A stretch of 64,000 nucleotides of DNA, taken from the NCBI GenBank assembly GCA_965213625.1, contig CBDBZU010000004.1, forward strand, positions 2,752,001 through 2,816,000, read 5' to 3'. Below, in pieces: positions 14,540-44,524 of the stretch. The stretch comes from a bacterium (GTDB lineage Bacteria > UBA8248). A program made the translations under genes and the position numbers. Under the pieces are notes generated by a model, which saw nothing but the letters and a program-made list of their open reading frames with translations, made no database searches and was not told where the DNA came from. The number at the start of each line of letters is the position of its first letter. Positions within the stretch are counted from its first letter, which is position 1.

Positions 14540-14620
14540 GGGGAGGTTCCGATGGCTCAGTCTCCCGGTTATGGTATGGTGTTCTCATCATCCGCCCACC
14601 GAAGCGATTCGGATACCCAC

Positions 14621-15484
14621 ATGGCAACAAGAACGAAAGCGCGCGCTCGCAAAGCGAAAAATACCGTCGCCGATGAGAGGCCCGGTCCCCCTCTCAAGTG
14701 GGCGGGTGGCAAGCGGTGGCTCGTCCCGCACATCCGGGCGTATTGGGAAAAGCACAGTGGGCGCCGCCTCGTGGAACCTTTCTGCGGCGGGCTTGCGGTC
14801 GCGCTCGGCCTCGCTCCCGAGAGGGCGCTCCTGAACGACATCAACGCCCCGCTCATGAATTTCTACACCTGGCTCAAGAAGGGTCTTTCTCGAACACGTA
14901 TTGGAATGCGAAACGACGCGGATGTCTACTACGCCCACAGGGAGCGGTTCAATGGGCTGCTCATGAGCGGGAAGGGTAGGCACAAGGAGGCGGCGGAGCT
15001 TTTCTACTATCTCAATCGCACGGGTTATAACGGGCTTTGCCGCTTCAACAGCAAGGGCGAGTTCAACGTCCCCTTCGGGCGATACAAGACGATAAACTAC
15101 ACAAAAAATTTCGGGGCCTACCGCGAGATATTCGAGGGCTGGGGGTTTTGCTGCCAGGATTTCGAGACGCTACCCATCGCGCCCGATGATTTCATCTACG
15201 CGGATCCACCTTATGACGTCGAGTTCACAAAATACTCTAAAGATGATTTCTCCTGGGAGGATCAGGTGCGGCTGGCGGAATTTCTGAGCGCGCACGAAGG
15301 CCCGATCGTCCTCTCGAACCAGGCGACGGAGAGAATCGTGGCGCTTTATGAGAAAAACGGTTTCACCCTCTCGTTCCTCGAAGGTCCGCGCCGTATCAGT
15401 TGCACGGGCGACCGCTCCCCCGCGCGTGAGGTGCTTGCGGTGCGGGGGGTGGAGAATCAGCGCGGGGTAAGTTGCGCCGCGTGA
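14621..15484 (+). CDS. dam: Dam-family (D12 class) N6-adenine DNA methyltransferase
   Basis: LKWAGGK, EPFCGG, YLNRTGYNGLCRFN, FNVPFG, DPPY. Target specificity not proven. Confidence 0.9.
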   Translation: MATRTKARARKAKNTVADERPGPPLKWAGGKRWLVPHIRAYWEKHSGRRLVEPFCGGLAVALGLAPERALLNDINAPLMNFYTWLKKGLSRTRIGMRNDADVYYAHRERFNGLLMSGKGRHKEAAELFYYLNRTGYNGLCRFNSKGEFNVPFGRYKTINYTKNFGAYREIFEGWGFCCQDFETLPIAPDDFIYADPPYDVEFTKYSKDDFSWEDQVRLAEFLSAHEGPIVLSNQATERIVALYEKNGFTLSFLEGPRRISCTGDRSPAREVLAVRGVENQRGVSCAA

Positions 15485-15492
15485 GGGGAACT

Positions 15493-15672
15493 ATGAGACA
15501 AGTCGTCATCAAGCCCGGAGAGGATGGCTTCTGGGTCGCCGAGTGTCCGAGCCTGCCCGGCTGCATCAGCCAGGGCCAATCCAAAAAAGAAGCGATGGAA
15601 AATATTCGGGAAGCGATTGATGGCTATATCGAAGTTTTGGAGGAAGAGGGCGATCCGATACCTCGGGCATAG
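15493..15672 (+). CDS. HicB-family antitoxin (short, no adjacent HicA)
   Basis: EDGFWVAECPSLPGCISQGQSKKEAMENIREAI; GAGG RBS. Confidence 0.85.
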   Translation: MRQVVIKPGEDGFWVAECPSLPGCISQGQSKKEAMENIREAIDGYIEVLEEEGDPIPRA

Positions 15673-15710
15673 TTCTCCCTAGTTGAGCAGGGGCGCTTTG
15701 CAGACCCATG

Positions 15711-15899
15711 AGCGCCCTGTGATGCAAACGCTCCTTTCTCAGTCGCGTTTGACCTTCGGCGGCTACTCAGGGTGAGGAAGATATGGCGGCTGTTCAGGGT
15801 GAGGGCGATACAGCAGCGAGGCGAGGCGAGGGGGCATCCTTCGATACACGGCTTCGCCGCTACTCAGGATGAGGCGGAGAGGGGTTTATCAATAACCCC
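15711..15899. repeat. Palindromic repeat element (CCTCA[C/T]CCTGAGTAG...TCGAAGG family), copy 1
   Basis: 15711-15777 matches the reverse complement of 51181-51247 (63/67 by eye); second related unit at 15835-15874; TIR-like end at 15881-15899. Confidence 0.8.
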
Positions 15900-15942
15900 A
15901 TATACGCCCCCAGCAATCCTTTTCAATTGGATGTGTTTCCCC

Positions 15943-16605
15943 CTACTCACCACCCTCCTGAAACGCGATGCGCTCGCCGGGGGGTTCCACGACGAGGTGT
16001 AAGGCCTCGGCCACGCGGCCCGTCAGGTTCCAGAGACCGCATATGAGGGTCAGCGAGACGAGTTGTTCGGTGGAGAAATGTTTCTGCATGGCCTCGAACG
16101 CCGCGTCGTTATTCTTGGCCGTCAGGTTCGTGACTTCCTCCGCCCAGTCGATGGCGGCTTTTTCCTTCTCGCTAAAGAGGTCGCTGTCCCGCCAGCCGTC
16201 GCCCTCCAGTAAATTGATTTTCTCCTGTTCGATGCCATGAGCCCGACCGAGCTCGACGTTGTGCCCGAGTCAGTTGTTGCACTCGGTCAGGATGGCCGTC
16301 TTGATGATGACGAGCTGGGCCATGTGGATGTATTCGGGGTCGGAGTCGCGGTGCTGGACGCGGAGTTTTCCGTCCATAATCTGCCAGCCCTCGACGAAGC
16401 CGGGCGCCCAGCCGAGCAGGCGCAAAAAGCGCGACACTTTGCCCCAGCGCTTCACGCCGCGCTCATATAGGGGCGCGAGTTCTTCGGCCAGGTGTTCGGG
16501 GATGTTGTCCGGATCGATCATAGGCACGCGGGGGAGGGGGCAGGCCATCATCTCCTCGGTGACGCCCATATCCTGAGAGAGGCCGGTGGCTTCGTTTATC
16601 GGCAT
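15943..16605 (-). CDS. AhpD/carboxymuconolactone decarboxylase-like selenoprotein (CxxU, U112)
   Basis: In-frame TGA at 16272-16270 in TECNN*LGH; the frame continues 108 codons (FSEKEKAAIDWAEEVT...HFSTEQLVSLTL...NLTGRVAEAL) to TAG; SECIS-like hairpin follows the TGA. Confidence 0.85.
16234..16257 (-). promoter_or_regulatory. Putative bacterial SECIS hairpin of the AhpD-like gene
   Basis: GUC-GAGCUC-[GGUC]-GGGCUC-AU-GGC; the loop G is nt 22 after UGA. Confidence 0.7.
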
Positions 16606-16679
16606 AGCGGAATCCCTTTCTGGTGATGCGTGAACGGATGAGAGTGAGGGCGCATTCTCGCGTACTGAGAGGGTTAGGA

Positions 16680-17087
16680 TCAATTCTCTTTATTGTACTC
16701 CATGCCTTCCAAGCGCCGCCGAACTTCTTCAAGCAATGCTTCCACGCGCTTTACAGCAACCTCTCGATCAAGCGGCATTGCGGAAATGTCGCTTGCACCG
16801 TAGCGAAATTGAACGGCGTAGGAGGTATATTCCACAAATTCTTCGAGACGTGCGGCCTCTATGTCTTCTTTTTTCATCATATTCATCAGTCGCGCTAAGT
16901 CATGCGTGGCGGGATATGTTCGTCCAAGAATAGCTAGTAATGCCTTGAGTAATTTCTCCACCGCCTGTTGCACATGAAAGCCGAATATTTCGTCGGCGAA
17001 AATCGTTGTGTCTTCCATGCCGCGGAGGGCGGAATAATCCCGCTCCGCCGCCTCAAGAAGCACGCGAGCCTGCTTAATGTCGCTCAT
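16680..17087 (-). CDS. HEPN domain protein
   Basis: FHVQQAVEKLLKA, THDLARL, QFRY; ATG at 17087 overlaps the 3' end of the MNT gene. Confidence 0.88.
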   Translation of the reverse strand: MSDIKQARVLLEAAERDYSALRGMEDTTIFADEIFGFHVQQAVEKLLKALLAILGRTYPATHDLARLMNMMKKEDIEAARLEEFVEYTSYAVQFRYGASDISAMPLDREVAVKRVEALLEEVRRRLEGMEYNKEN

Positions 17088-17409
17088 AGAGCACTTCGCC
17101 TTCGCGCAGGGCGCGCGCCAGGACATGGTTGAGGGAATCACGCCAGTATTCCACCTCGTCGCGGCTGAAGAGCAGAATGTCCTTGGAAACGTCAAAATCC
17201 GCCAGCGCGCGCCATAGGCGAGTGGTTTCGGCGCGCCTGTCCCGGTTTTTCCCGAAAGGCGCCGCTTCCACAACCACGAAATCCACGTCGGAGTCCGCCG
17301 CCGCATCGCCACGCGCGCGAGAGCCGAAGAGGATCACCTGCTCGGGATCGACTTCGTCCACGATGGTATTCACCATCTTTTTGAGTAGCGCGTCGTCGAC
17401 TTGCGTCAT
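17074..17409 (-). CDS. Minimal nucleotidyltransferase (MNT), partner of HEPN
   Basis: VILFGSRARGDAAADSDVDFVVV; AGGAG RBS. Confidence 0.92.
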   Translation of the reverse strand: MTQVDDALLKKMVNTIVDEVDPEQVILFGSRARGDAAADSDVDFVVVEAAPFGKNRDRRAETTRLWRALADFDVSKDILLFSRDEVEYWRDSLNHVLARALREGEVLYERH

Positions 17410-40191: not shown

Positions 40192-41088
40192 TTAATTCAC
40201 ACCTTTCGCTTTCGGCGCCAGCCCCAGCGCCCGTCTTTTCCGGATGACGCCCGAGAGGCGGTACCATGCCGCGCGGCCGGGGTCGACCCGTGAGCCACGC
40301 TCGATGAGGCGCGAGGCATAGTCCAGCTCCTTGTTCAGGTAGACGAGCAGGGAGGCGAGGTTCAGGAGCACGCCCGTGTCCTTGGGCGATAATTCCTCGG
40401 CCGCCTTGAGTATCTTTTCCGCCTCTTCGTAGCGGTACTGGGAGACCAGGTACTTGGCGTACCTGTTCGAGACGACCGGGTTCTCGGGGTCGAGTCCGCG
40501 GGCTTTGCGATATGCGGCGAGCGTTTCTTCGAGATCACCCGCATCGTCCATCATCTTCGCCAGGGCGAGCCAGGCGTCCACGTTTCCCGGGTTGATTTTC
40601 AGATCATCGCGAATGAGCTTGAGAGCAGCCTCGTCATTTTTTTTCTCAAGGAGTCCTAAGGCGCGCTCGTAATGCGCGCTCGTCGTTTTCTGTAAAATCG
40701 AAAATCCCTCCTCCGACTCGATGATTCTCGACGTCGCCCCGAGTTTCAAATCCTGAACCTCGGCCCGGACGCCGACGCTGAATTCAGAAGGCTCCGCATT
40801 TCGGATGGCTATGGCTTTATCCTTGAACTCGAGGGCCACCTGGCGGAAGGGGATTCCGAGAATGGCGGTCTTGTCATACGCCTCTTTCGCCAGGTCGTAA
40901 GTGGGAAGCGTCAGGACGCGGAAAAAGTGCGGGTCTTCCGCTTTTTTCTCAGGCTTTGGTTTTGGCTGGAGTACGGTCTCCTTCTTCTCTTTGGGAAGAA
41001 AGAGAGCGCGGAAGTTCGCACAGCCCGTCAGCAGCAGAAATGCCGCCGGCGCGACGAAGATTATCCCCAGCCGCCTGTCTCCTCGCAT
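40192..41088 (-). CDS. TPR-repeat lipoprotein with a degenerate parvulin-like segment
   Basis: Lipobox LTGC; LKLGATSRIIESEEGFSIL; TPR-like repeats (INPGNVDAW, LDPENPV, LSPKDT). Confidence 0.75.
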   Translation of the reverse strand: MRGDRRLGIIFVAPAAFLLLTGCANFRALFLPKEKKETVLQPKPKPEKKAEDPHFFRVLTLPTYDLAKEAYDKTAILGIPFRQVALEFKDKAIAIRNAEPSEFSVGVRAEVQDLKLGATSRIIESEEGFSILQKTTSAHYERALGLLEKKNDEAALKLIRDDLKINPGNVDAWLALAKMMDDAGDLEETLAAYRKARGLDPENPVVSNRYAKYLVSQYRYEEAEKILKAAEELSPKDTGVLLNLASLLVYLNKELDYASRLIERGSRVDPGRAAWYRLSGVIRKRRALGLAPKAKGVN

Positions 41089-41095
41089 AACTGTG

Positions 41096-41728
41096 TCAGG
41101 CGTCCGCGGTTTCCGCCACGGCGCGCTCGAAAGTTTTCATGAAAACCTCCATCGGCTGAGCGCCCGTGATTCTGTAGTTGTTCGCAAAATCGACCGTGGG
41201 CGTGGACTGTATCCCTGAGTTCAGCGCCTCGACGTGATCCGCAAAAACGCGCTTTTCCATCTCCGGGTCGGCCATGACCTCGCGCATTATCGCGGGCTCC
41301 GCCCCCAGCCGCTCGGCGGCGGCCACAAGCACGTCGGTGTCGTCGATGTTCCGGCACTCGACCAGATGCGTTCGTTCCACGGCTTCAAGGTACTCGCCCT
41401 CGCGCTCGGGGAGTTGGGTGGCGAAGGCCTTGATGGCGATCGCCCCGGGGGTGGAATGGGGATAGGGGAAATCGCGGCGCGCCATGAGTTCGGGGTTGAT
41501 CGCCTCGCCCCCGGGATGGCCCTTCGCCATCGCCCAGTGTCCCATGATGGCTTCTTTGCGGGTCGGGCGATGGTCCGGCTCGGGCGAGAGGAGAAATGCG
41601 CGATATCGGATGGCCAAGCGGCCGTCTGTCAGCTCCGTCAGTTTTCGCAACCGCACGGTTGCGATCAGGCACCAGGCTCAGTGTACGCAGTAGGTGTAAG
41701 TGGCTTCTACGACATGTTCGTTTGGCAA
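41096..41728 (-). CDS. DsbA/FrnE-like thioredoxin-fold selenoprotein (C14-x-x-U17-x-x-C20)
   Basis: TTG at 41728 with GAGGA RBS gives MPNEHVVEATYTYCVH*AWCLIA, in frame with ORF 41096-41656 (YRAFLL, PHS, cis-Pro loop GIQSTPT, ITGAQP); TGA at 41680-41678. Confidence 0.85.
41645..41664 (-). promoter_or_regulatory. Putative bacterial SECIS hairpin of the DsbA-like gene
   Basis: Perfect 8-bp stem UCGCAACC-[GUGC]-GGUUGCGA; the loop G is nt 22 after UGA. Confidence 0.75.
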
Positions 41729-41807
41729 TGCGAGTTCCTCAACGTTCGTCGGAATTGACAGGCAATCCTTTCATCTTGAGCAATTCGGCGCAATCGCCGG
41801 ACGCGAA

Positions 41808-42488
41808 TCAGCGCAGATATTCCCGCGTATGCCGTGCGGGCGAGGCGTTTCGGGAGAGGCGGCCTTCCAGGGCATCCAAATCGTCCGCCTCGTCGACGTC
41901 GCGCCATTCCGGGAGGAGGGAAGTCCCGATGCCGAGCGCGCGCGCCTTCTCCATCGTGCGCGTTAGCACCTCGCTCGTACTCCAGGGGATGCCGGTGAAA
42001 ATTTCAGGCGCGAACCGGTTCATCCCGACGAGGTAATAGCCCCCGTCCGCCGCGGGCCCGAGCGTGATCTTGGCGTCATCCACGCAATCCAGGTTCTCAA
42101 AAGCATCGAGCAGAACTTCATGCGGCAAGTCCGGAAAATCCGTGCCGATGAGCACCGCCCGCCTCCCGCCCATCAGGCACCGTCCCAGAGCCGCCGCCAT
42201 GCGCGCGCCAAGGTCCGCGCCCGTTTGCGCGCGGTGAAAAAATGCGCCGGGCAGCCAGTCGGCGAGCGGGAATTCATCGAGCGATTCTCCGCGTTCCAGC
42301 GCCCATTCGCAGACGAGGGCGACGCCCGGCCTCGCTTCGGTGAGCGCGCGTGCCGTCTCGGCGGAGTCCAGCAAAAAACACTTGTAAAGTCCCGCTGCGC
42401 CCTCATACCCGAAACTTTGGGCGAGGCGCGTCTTTACCCGGCCGGCGAGGGGTGGTTTGGCGAAAAGGATGAGAGATTCGGCCGCCAT
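41808..42488 (-). CDS. DUF2064 / TIGR04282-family glycosyltransferase-like protein
   Basis: FAKPPLAGRVKTRL, QTGADLGARM, IGTDFPDL, LGPAADGGYYLVG, IPWST, DVD. Confidence 0.9.
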   Translation of the reverse strand: MAAESLILFAKPPLAGRVKTRLAQSFGYEGAAGLYKCFLLDSAETARALTEARPGVALVCEWALERGESLDEFPLADWLPGAFFHRAQTGADLGARMAAALGRCLMGGRRAVLIGTDFPDLPHEVLLDAFENLDCVDDAKITLGPAADGGYYLVGMNRFAPEIFTGIPWSTSEVLTRTMEKARALGIGTSLLPEWRDVDEADDLDALEGRLSRNASPARHTREYLR

Positions 42489-42598: not shown

Positions 42599-43042
42599 AT
42601 GGAATTTAACCAGGAGATTACGGTCGCCGCCCCCCGGGAGAAGGTGTGGGATTTCATCTGGCAGGTCGAGGAGTTCGCCGCCTGCGTACCCGGCGTGAAG
42701 GACGTTGAGAAAATAGACGACGCGACCTACGGCGTTCGGGTCGAGCAGAAGGTCAGTTTCCTGAAGGCGAGCTTTCAGCTTCAGATCAACATCGAGGAAG
42801 TCCGCGCGCCCGAGTACATCCGCACGGTGGGCGAGGGGAAGGATTCGAAATTAGCGGCGAGCCTCAAGCAGAAAAACGAGGTGACGCTCGAGGCCGTCTC
42901 CGAGAACGAAACAATAGTGCGCATTGACTCGAGCGTCGACGTTTTCGGAAAACTCGGCTCGCTCGGCTTCACCGTCATCAAGAACCAGGCGAACAAGATT
43001 TTCTCCGAATTCGCAAAGAACGTGAAAGCGAAGGTGGAATAA
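42599..43042 (+). CDS. CoxG/SRPBCC family protein
   Basis: VAAPREKVWDF, ACVPG, GKLGSLG. Confidence 0.88.
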   Translation: MEFNQEITVAAPREKVWDFIWQVEEFAACVPGVKDVEKIDDATYGVRVEQKVSFLKASFQLQINIEEVRAPEYIRTVGEGKDSKLAASLKQKNEVTLEAVSENETIVRIDSSVDVFGKLGSLGFTVIKNQANKIFSEFAKNVKAKVE

Positions 43043-43164
43043 TCTTCCCCCGCGCCGCTCCGTCCGGGGAGTTGTGAGCTTCGCGCGCTCCTCGGATCGT
43101 CGGCAAACTACGCCTCTTCCGGTCCAATTTTGCCGCATTACCCCCGATCCAAAGTGGCCAGTTT

Positions 43165-43319
43165 CGTCATTCCGGCGAAAGCCGGAATCCATTTTCCCTC
43201 GGCCACCGCCGAGGGTTCCTGATGGAGAGTGCCTGGGAAAGGCTGCTCACGGCGAAAAAAGGAGCCACGTGCGAGTGGACGAAAAGGCATAATGGATTCC
43301 GGCTTTCGCCGGAATGACG
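43165..43319. repeat. CGTC-type REP inverted pair (REPIN-like), upstream of GIY-YIG
   Basis: CGTCATTCCGGCGAAAGCCGGAATCCATT at 43165-43193 and its exact reverse complement at 43291-43319. Confidence 0.92.
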
Positions 43320-43344
43320 GTGAAAGACCAAGAAAGTAGGAACA

Positions 43345-43632
43345 ATGAAGCAGCCCTGCGTCTACATTCTCGCCAACAAGTCTCGCGGCACGCTCTATAT
43401 CGGCGTTACGTCCGACCTTCTCCGTAGGATCTGGCAACATAAGAATGGTACAGCGAAAAGTTTCACGAAGCGTTACGGCACCCAAACGCTGGTCTGGTAT
43501 GAGAGCCACGAAACGATGGAGAGCGCAATTGCGCGTGAGAAGAGCATTAAAAACTGGCGGCGTATATGGAAACTCGAACTGATCGAAGAGGACAATCCGA
43601 CGTGGCGTGATTTGTATGAAGATATTATCTGA
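43345..43632 (+). CDS. Stand-alone GIY-YIG nuclease
   Basis: CVYILAN...TLYIGVTSDLLRRIWQHK...AIAREKSIKNW...NPTWRDL; 95 aa. Confidence 0.93.
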   Translation: MKQPCVYILANKSRGTLYIGVTSDLLRRIWQHKNGTAKSFTKRYGTQTLVWYESHETMESAIAREKSIKNWRRIWKLELIEEDNPTWRDLYEDII

Positions 43633-43680
43633 AATACCTTCCGGCTTTTCGCGCTACCCCGACCTTGGTTTTGCCTTGCT

Positions 43681-43791
43681 CGTCATTCCGGTGTCAGTCC
43701 CGACTGAGGAAGGAGGGGCTGCGGAATCCATTTTCCCTTGGCCACCGGCGAGGACTTCTGATGAGGTGTCCCTGTAAAGGCTGCGCGTGGC
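43681..43791 (+). repeat. CGTC REP with a 31-nt loop insertion plus a duplicated spacer
   Basis: CGTCATTCCG-[31 nt]-CGGAATCCATTTTCCC followed by sequence homologous to 43194-43253. Confidence 0.8.
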
Positions 43792-43851
43792 ATGTTTTTC
43801 GGAACTTCAGGATTTGTTGAAAACTCCTCTTCGCTCGAAAGTGATCACTGC

Positions 43852-43989
43852 CGTCATTCCGGCGAAAGCCGGAATCCATTTGCGGGCGCGGGTGTATGAA
43901 CAGCGGCGTTTCATTCCCCACCGATGCGCGGGAACCCTGACGAAAGGCAAAAGGCGTAACAATGGATTCCGGCTTTCGCCGGAATGACG
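43852..43989. repeat. Second CGTC-type REP inverted pair
   Basis: Identical 29-mer at 43852-43880 and its reverse complement at 43961-43989. Confidence 0.92.
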
Positions 43990-44047
43990 TTGGCACTTTC
44001 GATGGGGGTCAATAATCCATTTGAAGGGCTCTTTCACCAACCCCCCC

Positions 44048-44524
44048 TCAGGGTCGCTTGACGATCCACTCCTCCACCAGTTCACAGCCGCTCTCGCGGT
44101 AGAGCGCGGATATCGGGCAGCGCCCGTGATGCTGGCGTTTTAATTCTTCCACCCGCTCGTCGGACTCATCGGTGGTCAAGTGAATCTTCGCCTCCACGTA
44201 ATCGAAGTTGGGGCTGATGCCGTTGTCCGGGTCCTTGGCGCCCCGGGGGTCGGCCGTGCCTCGAACCTCCACCTCCTGGGCGATGACGTTGAAATCAAGA
44301 CCCTCGGCCACCTTGTTCGTAATGACCGTGATGCAGGCGGAAAGCGCGCCGAGCGCCAGTTCACGCGGCGTGGGGCCGGTGTCGGTTCCGCCGCCCTGGG
44401 CGGGTTCATCGGCGACGAAGTCGTGCTTGCGCGCTTTTAACTCGACCCGGCAGCCCTCCGAGCGCCTGGCTCTCACGCGGCGCTCCTGCTTGGCCATCAC
44501 TTCCTTGTCTACGGATTCCACCAT
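44048..44524 (-). CDS. OsmC/Ohr family protein
   Basis: ADEPAQGGGTDTGPTP, ALSAC, RCPIS. Confidence 0.9.
   Translation of the reverse strand: MVESVDKEVMAKQERRVRARRSEGCRVELKARKHDFVADEPAQGGGTDTGPTPRELALGALSACITVITNKVAEGLDFNVIAQEVEVRGTADPRGAKDPDNGISPNFDYVEAKIHLTTDESDERVEELKRQHHGRCPISALYRESGCELVEEWIVKRP

Follow-up and report, generated by a model that had tools for sequence, protein, structure and literature searches.

Does an in-frame TGA end the reading frame of a DsbA/FrnE-like oxidoreductase, or does it encode the selenocysteine (Sec) of the active site? This question is raised by a locus in a 64,000-nucleotide stretch of bacterial DNA (GTDB lineage UBA8248; GenBank assembly GCA_965213625.1, contig CBDBZU010000004.1, positions 2,752,001 to 2,816,000), which we refer to as the window and in which all positions given here are counted. 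An initial annotation, made from the sequence alone, had proposed a hidden DsbA/FrnE-like selenoprotein at 41096-41728 on the minus strand. Our analysis supports that proposal through a column of the homologue alignment that holds either TGA or a Cys codon, conserved codons upstream of the TGA, the fit of a downstream hairpin to the model of the bacterial selenocysteine insertion sequence (SECIS), and a complete fold. Taken as a whole, the best explanation, to which we assign a probability of about 0.82, is a 210-residue DsbA/FrnE-like oxidoreductase with Sec at residue 17, produced by hairpin-directed UGA decoding and carrying an active-site variant specific to one clade.

The predicted coding sequence (41096-41728, minus strand) was delimited from a profile match, the frames of relatives, and a structure model, and it comprises 210 codons, from a TTG start (41726-41728) to a TGA stop (41098-41096), with Sec at codon 17. 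The TTG is the first ATG, GTG, or TTG past an in-frame stop at 41773-41771, and the same codon stands at this position in all 16 of the closest related loci (L001-L016, described below). It is preceded, with a spacer of 7 nt, by a Shine-Dalgarno-like GAGGA (41736-41740), and L001-L016 have GAGGA, GAGGG, or a similar purine-rich box at the same spot. After the TTG, the minus-strand frame reads P-N-E-H-V-V-E-A-T-Y-T-Y-C14-V-H16-TGA-A-W-C20-L-I-A-T-V-R-L and, the TGA aside, runs uninterrupted into a tracked open reading frame (ORF) of 186 amino acids at 41096-41656, which contains no CxxC anywhere. The TGA (41678-41680), read as Sec17, occupies the nucleophilic position of U-A-W-C, where homologues have Cys. 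It is followed by the codon for Cys20 (41669-41671), the resolving Cys of U-x-x-C, which is nearly invariant in our alignment A5. Upstream of it lie the codons for Cys14 (TGC, 41687-41689), at position -3 from Sec, where the rest of the family has Asp, and for His16 (CAC, 41681-41683), at position -1, where relatives have Leu, Val, Ala, or Met. The layout described in the initial annotation (GAGGA, TTG, C-V-H-TGA-A-W-C, and a tracked ORF devoid of CxxC) is thus all present on the minus strand, as is the perfect 8-bp hairpin that it placed after the TGA, at 41664-41645. The GTG start of the tracked ORF (codon 25) sits within the loop of this hairpin. Gene callers stop at the UGA (41680-41678) and start again further on, hence the truncated 186-residue ORF without a CxxC.

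Reading through the TGA raised the Pfam DSBA score from 33.4 bits for the truncated ORF to 46.7 bits (cut-off 25.6) and extended the profile match from positions 19-188 to positions 8-188. Searched by word index, a set of 5.8 billion proteins yielded 21 matches with 66-99% identity and a coverage of at most 89%; the N-terminus is covered by none of the 21, and their annotated starts differ among themselves. Such scattered start calls are the usual behavior of gene callers at an unrecognized Sec codon. In addition, an exhaustive HMMER search of 1.84 billion representative sequences gave 758 matches at E <= 0.001. Once the full-length matches were aligned (alignments A1 and A5), U17-A-W-C20 fell on the C-A-W-C or C-P-W-C redox motif of the homologues, its first position being the UGA that we take as Sec. 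The TGA column therefore coincides with the first Cys of the C-x-W-C motif, just where the initial annotation had placed it in the FrnE-type motif, and the Cys14 column coincides with a conserved Asp. The full-length homologues P0029 and P0030, for example, read FFHDVLCAWC, with Cys at the TGA column.

To extend this comparison to the DNA level, 30 related loci (L001-L030) were gathered using an alignment of 8 closer sequences. The arrangement seen in the window, C-[V/I]-H-TGA-[A/S]-W-C, occurs in 20 loci (L001-L019 and L021), D-V-L-TGA-A-W-C in five (L020, L022, L023, L028, and L029), and D-V-L-TGT/TGC-A-W-C in four (L024-L027), with L030, which is without its N-terminus, standing outside these counts. 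Overall, the column holds TGA in the window and 25 loci and TGT or TGC in 4 loci. The close relatives L001-L016 have an intact frame of 209-211 codons. Across the window and these 16 loci, residues 11-14 and 16-19 are identical in 17 of 17 sequences and Val15 and Cys20 in 16 of 17, and the codons for T10, Y11, Y13, V15, H16, A18, and C20 show synonymous variation. Identity in frame combined with synonymous variation upstream of the TGA therefore indicates purifying selection on the upstream peptide in this frame. Furthermore, no internal start is conserved, since the relatives have GGG where the window has GTG (codon 25). Conservation of the TGA and of the upstream peptide across 25 other loci is far beyond chance, and the comparative evidence for a predicted selenoprotein of 210 amino acids is strong. 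The homologue alignment that the initial annotation had named as a check on its claim confirmed the TGA/Cys column, the retention of Cys14 in all members of the window's clade, and the conservation of the upstream codons.

The SECIS-like hairpin (41645-41664, minus strand), recognized by folding and by comparison with the SECIS model, consists of the stem arm UCGCAACC (41664-41657), a GUGC loop (41656-41653), and the stem arm GGUUGCGA (41652-41645). It begins 13 nt past the UGA, and its loop begins 21 nt past the UGA. In the available text of a 2026 review (PMC13188914), the bacterial SECIS model is given as a loop of 3-9 nt on a stem of 4-16 bp, a G within the first two loop positions, mostly with G or U next to it, a distance of 16-37 nt from UGA to loop, and an energy of -7.5 kcal/mol or lower. 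The window hairpin agrees with the model on all four counts, with a 4-nt loop on an 8-bp stem, a loop that starts with G-U, a distance of 21 nt, and a centroid energy of -12.9 kcal/mol when the hairpin is folded by itself. Indeed, the representatives that were folded from every Sec-bearing group form a hairpin in which the loop opens with GG or GU 17-21 nt past the UGA: CGCGACC-GGGC-GGUUGCG in the close clade, GCCUC-GGN-GAGGC in L020, L022, and L023, and a hairpin with a GUC loop in L028 and L029. Among the four loci with a Cys codon, three have no comparable hairpin and L027 has a different one. Codons 22-28, which form the hairpin, display a synonymous variation of 0.18 bits against a median of 0.53 bits, the 8th lowest value of 203 such segments, and this sign is independent of folding energy. 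The single variable site of the hairpin (A/G) pairs with U in both states.

An AlphaFold2 model built from a 45-row alignment has a mean predicted local distance difference test (pLDDT) score of 96.3 and a predicted template modeling score of 0.92. It comprises a strand at residues 7-13, the loop C14-V-H-U17, a helix at 18-33, a helical insert at 55-170, and strands at 178-188, and it puts the active site at the N-terminal end of helix 1, as in the DsbA-like thioredoxin fold. The codons for Thr176-Pro177 (41199-41204, minus strand) align with the Val-Pro of relatives at the position of the cis-proline loop (alignment A5 and its column table), and Pro177 is nearly invariant in A5. In the model, strand 1 begins as early as residue 7, which appears to leave no space for a signal peptide, and a cytoplasmic location, as for FrnE and DsbM, is probable.

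The best fold matches in the PDB are 2in3, with a template modeling (TM) score of 0.84, Deinococcus FrnE, YjbH, SCO1869 (3gl5), DsbM, and kappa-class glutathione S-transferases, of which only 3gl5 and FrnE are solved relatives by sequence. The FrnE of Deinococcus radiodurans, a cytoplasmic disulfide reductase/isomerase (PDB 5cnw, 5co3, 5e59, and 5xwh), has the same fold (Foldseek E of about 1e-9, TM 0.72-0.76), with a sequence similarity of E 7e-4 and only 18-19% identity in the fold alignment. FrnE has no signal peptide and the window protein probably has none, and the C-P-W/F-C-type motif of FrnE lies at the matching place; however, FrnE uses Cys where the window protein is predicted to use Sec. 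The FrnE-like subfamily has Asp at -3 (D-x-x-C-x-W/F-C), whereas the window and 20 loci have Cys there. The C-terminal CxxxxC tail of FrnE is also absent from the window protein, which ends in ...FERAVAETADA and has no Cys beyond residue 125. According to the available text of PMC8945050, this CxxxxC occurs in many FrnE proteins, that of D. radiodurans included, and has been proposed to regenerate the active site, and some FrnE homologues likewise lack it. The putative protein disulfide isomerase of Nitrosomonas europaea (2in3), YjbH (6gho), DsbM (5hfg), and SCO1869 (3gl5) match with TM scores of 0.74-0.84 and are, by their PDB descriptions, DsbA-like proteins without export signals. All of them are Cys proteins with 16-24% identity to the window protein, and function is not transferable from them at that level. 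As a separate observation, proteins of 440-1160 amino acids among the matches (e.g., P0031, P0037, and P0141) hold 2-5 separate stretches that match the DsbA-like query, and by their sequences they look like tandem arrays of DsbA-like domains.

We next consider what sets the window's active site apart. The exhaustive search provided 148 representative matches, of which 100 are no longer than 300 amino acids, and the 62 of these with an N-terminal CxxC served as the reference set. Asp stands at -3 in all 62 of these single-domain representatives and in 9 of 9 D-V-L-type loci, in keeping with the initial annotation, which had noted that Asp is usual three residues before the first Cys and that Cys replaces it here; His at -1 is found in none of the 62. 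The window's clade has 21 members, namely the window, L001-L019, and L021. Cys14, His16, and the TGA are each present in 21 of 21, His16 with synonymous CAC/CAT variation, and Cys20 is present in 20 of 21, L002 being the exception. The C-x-x-U-x-x-C arrangement read earlier from the window is therefore real, and Cys14 is retained down to 36-47% overall identity (L018 and L021). No all-Cys C-x-x-C-x-x-C form was found among the 21 database matches or the 62 representatives, and every Cys at -3 that we saw came with Sec. The other 38 of the 100 shorter representatives have no N-terminal CxxC (e.g., P0027, P0041, P0063, P0102, P0120, P0159, and P0169), and many of them begin just past the active-site position (e.g., 'VWCF...' or 'MRL...'). 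Their sequences suggest that many CxxC-less DsbA-like representatives may be further unannotated Sec forms.

The nearest relatives of the clade, at 29-42% identity, form a D-V-L-[C/U]-A-W-C subfamily (L020 and L022-L029; P0029, P0030, and P0034) that occurs in both Sec and Cys forms and of which we know no characterized member. The two groups share A-W-C, H64-W65, and the F-x-Y-P-x-S-x-P and H-L-x-E-C-x-N blocks, and Cys125 (H-L-V-E-C) is common to the clade and the D-V-L-type relatives. They differ at four positions. The nearest relatives have Asp at position 14 and Leu at position 16, whereas the clade has Cys and His; at position 99 the relatives have Cys (A-C-K, in 9 of 9 D-V-L-type loci), whereas the clade has Ile, Val, or Leu (10 of 10 rows examined); and at position 176, before the cis-Pro, the D-V-L-type relatives have Val (A/G-V-P-T), whereas the window's clade has Thr (S-T-P-T). 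A quick maximum-likelihood tree was computed from 45 rows of A5, with L021 cut to 135 residues and L002-L004, L006-L008, L010-L013, and L019 left out as redundant. In this tree the clade forms one group (Shimodaira-Hasegawa approximate likelihood ratio test support of 97) nested in a 30-row D-V-L-type group (support of 98). The Cys14 state of the clade is therefore derived and arose once.

If the protein is made as predicted, the hairpin at 41664-41645 would recruit SelB with Sec-tRNA(Sec), and Sec would be inserted at residue 17. From the behavior of the family we infer that Sec17, at the N-terminus of helix 1, would attack a substrate disulfide and that Cys20 would resolve the mixed selenenylsulfide. 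Our best guess for Cys14, which lies at the end of strand 1, is that it acts as a third redox residue; this guess draws on an analogy with the extra C-terminal CxxxxC of Deinococcus FrnE. Cys14 could form an alternative bond with Sec17 or Cys20, and such a bond might protect the selenol or pass the oxidized state on for recycling. His16 may act as a base beside Cys14, and together the two residues may replace the roles of the lost Asp and Cys99.

Such decoding calls for a genome that inserts Sec. TGA is the stop codon of 24 of the 45 Pfam-supported genes in the window, this gene included, and several orthologues also end in TGA; with 24 of 45 genes ending in it, TGA is therefore not reassigned genome-wide. 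The window also holds a second Sec/Cys pair, in a candidate selenoprotein of the AhpD/CMD-like 'alkylhydroperoxidase family' (15946-16605, minus strand) that reads T-E-C-N-N-TGA-L-G-H-N (CxxU), with the TGA at 16272-16270. Seven full-length homologues with 47-54% identity have Cys at the column of this TGA, and two relatives with 92-93% identity are annotated as ending exactly at ...TECNN. Its putative hairpin, GAGCUC-GGUC-GGGCUC, has a loop that also begins 21 nt past the UGA, and the candidate matches NCBIfam NF053654 (YciW-related (seleno)protein) at 2.1e-11, below the cut-off of that model. The closest relatives of the DsbA-like gene are labeled Nitrospinota or Nitrospinaceae. In the available text on BSepDB (PMC13326102), this database takes in only species with a Sec pathway, and three Nitrospinota- or Nitrospinaceae-named metagenome-assembled genomes (MAGs) assigned to GTDB UBA8248 are among its top ten for selenoproteins, with 48-54 genes each. 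SelA and SelB are also reported to co-occur in most of the sponge-symbiont bins studied in PMC5649159, as far as its available text goes, a Nitrospinae bin included. On the basis of the TGA stops, the second Sec/Cys pair, and the selenoprotein-rich UBA8248 MAGs, the genome probably decodes Sec.

Several results weigh against our interpretation. A Pfam scan of 48 ORFs in the window found no SelA, SelB, or SelD, a tRNA scan of the 64-kb window found no tRNA gene and hence no tRNA-Sec, and a tRNA scan of the 30 related loci likewise found no tRNA-Sec. The folding energy of the hairpin region is unremarkable (-13.3 kcal/mol, z of -1.49), with 18 of 200 shuffled sequences folding at least as well, and the 101-nt context of the hairpin has a z of -0.17. 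Covariation was uninformative, with one pair showing a double change and an observed score that was reached by 88 of 500 shuffles. In the relatives with a GGGC loop (L004, L018, and L021), the minimum-energy structure is an alternative fold outside the SECIS model. No Rfam family matched anywhere in the window at gathering thresholds, a result that says little unless Rfam includes a general bacterial SECIS model. Two clade members are irregular: L002 has CGC (Arg) at residue 20 (L002:10058-10060) as well as a nearby T-to-C change that makes residue 30 Pro instead of Leu, and the C-terminal half of L021 loses the frame (L021:9977-10651). Misassembly or decay of these copies may account for both oddities. 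All four substitutions (positions 14, 16, 99, and 176) lie on one branch and so count as a single evolutionary event, with no repeated correlation. Finally, the role of Cys14 is one that we infer.

These last two points bear on a serious rival, in which the protein is a real UxxC selenoprotein whose Cys14 has no redox or ligand role and the four substitutions reflect lineage-specific retuning or neutral fixation; the enzyme would then behave no differently from other DsbA-like UxxC selenoproteins. We regard it as a live possibility, if one that falls short of even odds. It is favored by the absence of independent repeats of the four substitutions in the tree and by the five other Sec-bearing loci, which use D-V-L-U-A-W-C; moreover, the family motif in the available text of the original description (PMC1088965) is UxxC alone. 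Against it, Cys14 replaces an Asp that all 62 reference representatives have, all 21 members retain it, even at 36-47% identity, with His16 equally conserved, and Cys at -3 accompanies only Sec among the 21 matches and the 62 representatives. The most ambitious form of our own reading goes further and remains tentative: with two Cys and a His around Sec, C-x-H-U-x-W-C may represent a thioredoxin-fold active site of a new type, one where Cys14 stands in for Asp14 and Cys99. The predicted site could operate a selenenylsulfide/disulfide relay of three residues, or its Cys-His-Sec-Cys could coordinate a soft metal or metalloid.

A metal-binding role, which the initial annotation had suggested next to alternative selenenylsulfides, seems improbable to us; in it, Cys14, His16, Sec17, and Cys20 would serve as ligands of a trivalent metalloid or soft metal (As(III), Hg, Cu, or Cd) instead of or besides redox chemistry. 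The model does place three chalcogen side chains and a His within seven residues at the loop and helix N-terminus, and Deinococcus FrnE is described as cadmium-inducible in the available text of PMC8945050. In addition, the gene directly upstream on the same strand (41808-42488, minus strand; 80 nt before the TTG) encodes a glycosyltransferase-like protein (Pfam DUF2064) of the family TIGR04282 (174.8 bits against a cut-off of 134), which bears the NCBI name arsenosugar biosynthesis glycosyltransferase. However, this family name, the only pointer to arsenic, is an annotation rather than a test, the 48 window ORFs that were scanned include no gene for arsenic resistance or methylation, and the adjacency is limited to L001-L017, with no TIGR04282 gene beside the distant C-V-H-U loci L018, L019, and L021, which have other neighbors.

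We consider it very unlikely that the TGA is a true stop, the locus then being either a CxxC-less DsbA-domain protein that starts downstream or a pseudogene, with the upstream similarity as a relic. Automated annotation gives only truncated ORFs in every relative, and both the lack of Sec machinery in the window and the background-level energy of the hairpin fit this view. However, the 16 codons upstream are under in-frame purifying selection, 26 sequences from several lineages share the TGA, which aligns with Cys codons, no internal start codon is conserved, and a truncated protein would lose strand 1 and the active-site turn of a fold modeled at a pLDDT of 96. Decoding of the UGA as Trp, Gly, or Cys, through a reassigned code or near-cognate suppression, is less credible still: any residue would open the frame and no tRNA-Sec was found in the window or the 30 loci, but TGA ends 24 of 45 window genes, this one included, as well as several orthologues, Cys at this column in homologues is what a Sec/Cys pair typically shows, a hairpin that fits the SECIS model lies at the right distance, and a second Cys-aligned TGA in the window likewise has its hairpin loop 21 nt downstream.

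Downstream of the selenoprotein gene lies a TPR-repeat protein gene with a lipobox-like N-terminus (40192-41088, minus strand; Pfam TPR, with synteny in L001-L017), the ATG of which is 8 nt past the selenoprotein stop. No promoter-like and no convincing terminator-like site was found between these two genes and the TIGR04282 gene, all three on the minus strand. We examined the neighborhood as an independent functional clue and rejected it: the TIGR04282/TPR/amidohydrolase order occurs only in L001-L017, and the other Sec-bearing loci have unrelated neighbors. For instance, L018 (7534-9879) and L019 (8227-9942) have an arylsulfatase-like neighbor upstream, and L018 (10679-12559) and L021 (11819-13591) have a Do/HtrA-family protease downstream on the opposite strand.

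The window was also screened for other Sec genes. A crude screen for a UGA with a redox context and a hairpin gave 48 candidates, nearly all of them noise in DNA of 57% GC, and a second screen, which combined read-through ORFs outside known genes (24 candidates) with a Pfam scan, led to the AhpD-like gene. RbfA/DUF503, S21, RecO, and HicB-like matches also appeared in the second screen, and we do not claim them as selenoproteins. The region of the AhpD-like candidate (14552-17312) contains defense- or mobile-looking genes, namely a D12-class adenine methyltransferase (14552-15481), a HicB-like antitoxin ORF (15400-15669) that as listed needs TGA read-through, and a HEPN-domain protein (16683-17312). 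An OsmC-like gene (44051-44524, minus strand) scores 55.2 bits with NCBIfam NF041052 (OsmC-related (seleno)protein), short of the cut-off of 95; as the gene contains no in-frame TGA, it presumably encodes a Cys form. Between a CoxG-like gene and this OsmC-like gene, at about 42850-44100 on both strands, overlapping ORFs contain recurring peptides (...SGFRRNDE..., ...IPAFAGMT..., ...SGESRNPL..., and ...FRRKPESI...), which suggests copies of a short repeated DNA element. A small ORF at 43345-43632 (plus strand) opens with MKQPCVYILANKSRGTLYIGVTSDL and presumably resembles GIY-YIG-type nuclease-domain proteins.

The novelty implied by the initial annotation was overstated. DsbA-like (COG2761) UxxC selenoproteins were reported in 2005 from nine sequences of the Sargasso Sea metagenome (PMC1088965), and 'DsbA-like protein form 1' (PF01323/COG2761, UxxC) is listed in the 2026 review (PMC13188914), both according to the available text of these papers. 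The window protein resembles that form in its DSBA Pfam domain, in having Sec first in U-x-x-C, in the hairpin past the UGA, and in its widespread Cys homologues. It differs, by comparison with the description of the form rather than with its reference sequence, in that the clade has Cys at -3 and His at -1 (C-x-H-U-x-W-C) and no Cys99. No description of C-x-x-U-x-x-C was found in the texts of Creative Commons papers in PMC and of bioRxiv preprints. The kind of protein is known, and its active-site variant looks undescribed. Genomes from this lineage are probably among those that BSepDB has already searched.

Every database copy that we found is truncated, with 0 of 21 reaching the N-terminus, and the active site is consequently invisible to annotation-based studies of these Nitrospinota-labeled bacteria, rich as they are in selenoproteins. 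If Cys14 is inert, the protein adds another example to a selenoprotein family that was already described in 2005. In the DsbA/FrnE-like family the Asp at -3 is practically invariant, and a natural swap to Cys could reveal what that Asp does. The variant as a whole, with Cys for Asp, His beside Sec, and the distal Cys lost, could show how a selenol site is protected or recycled.

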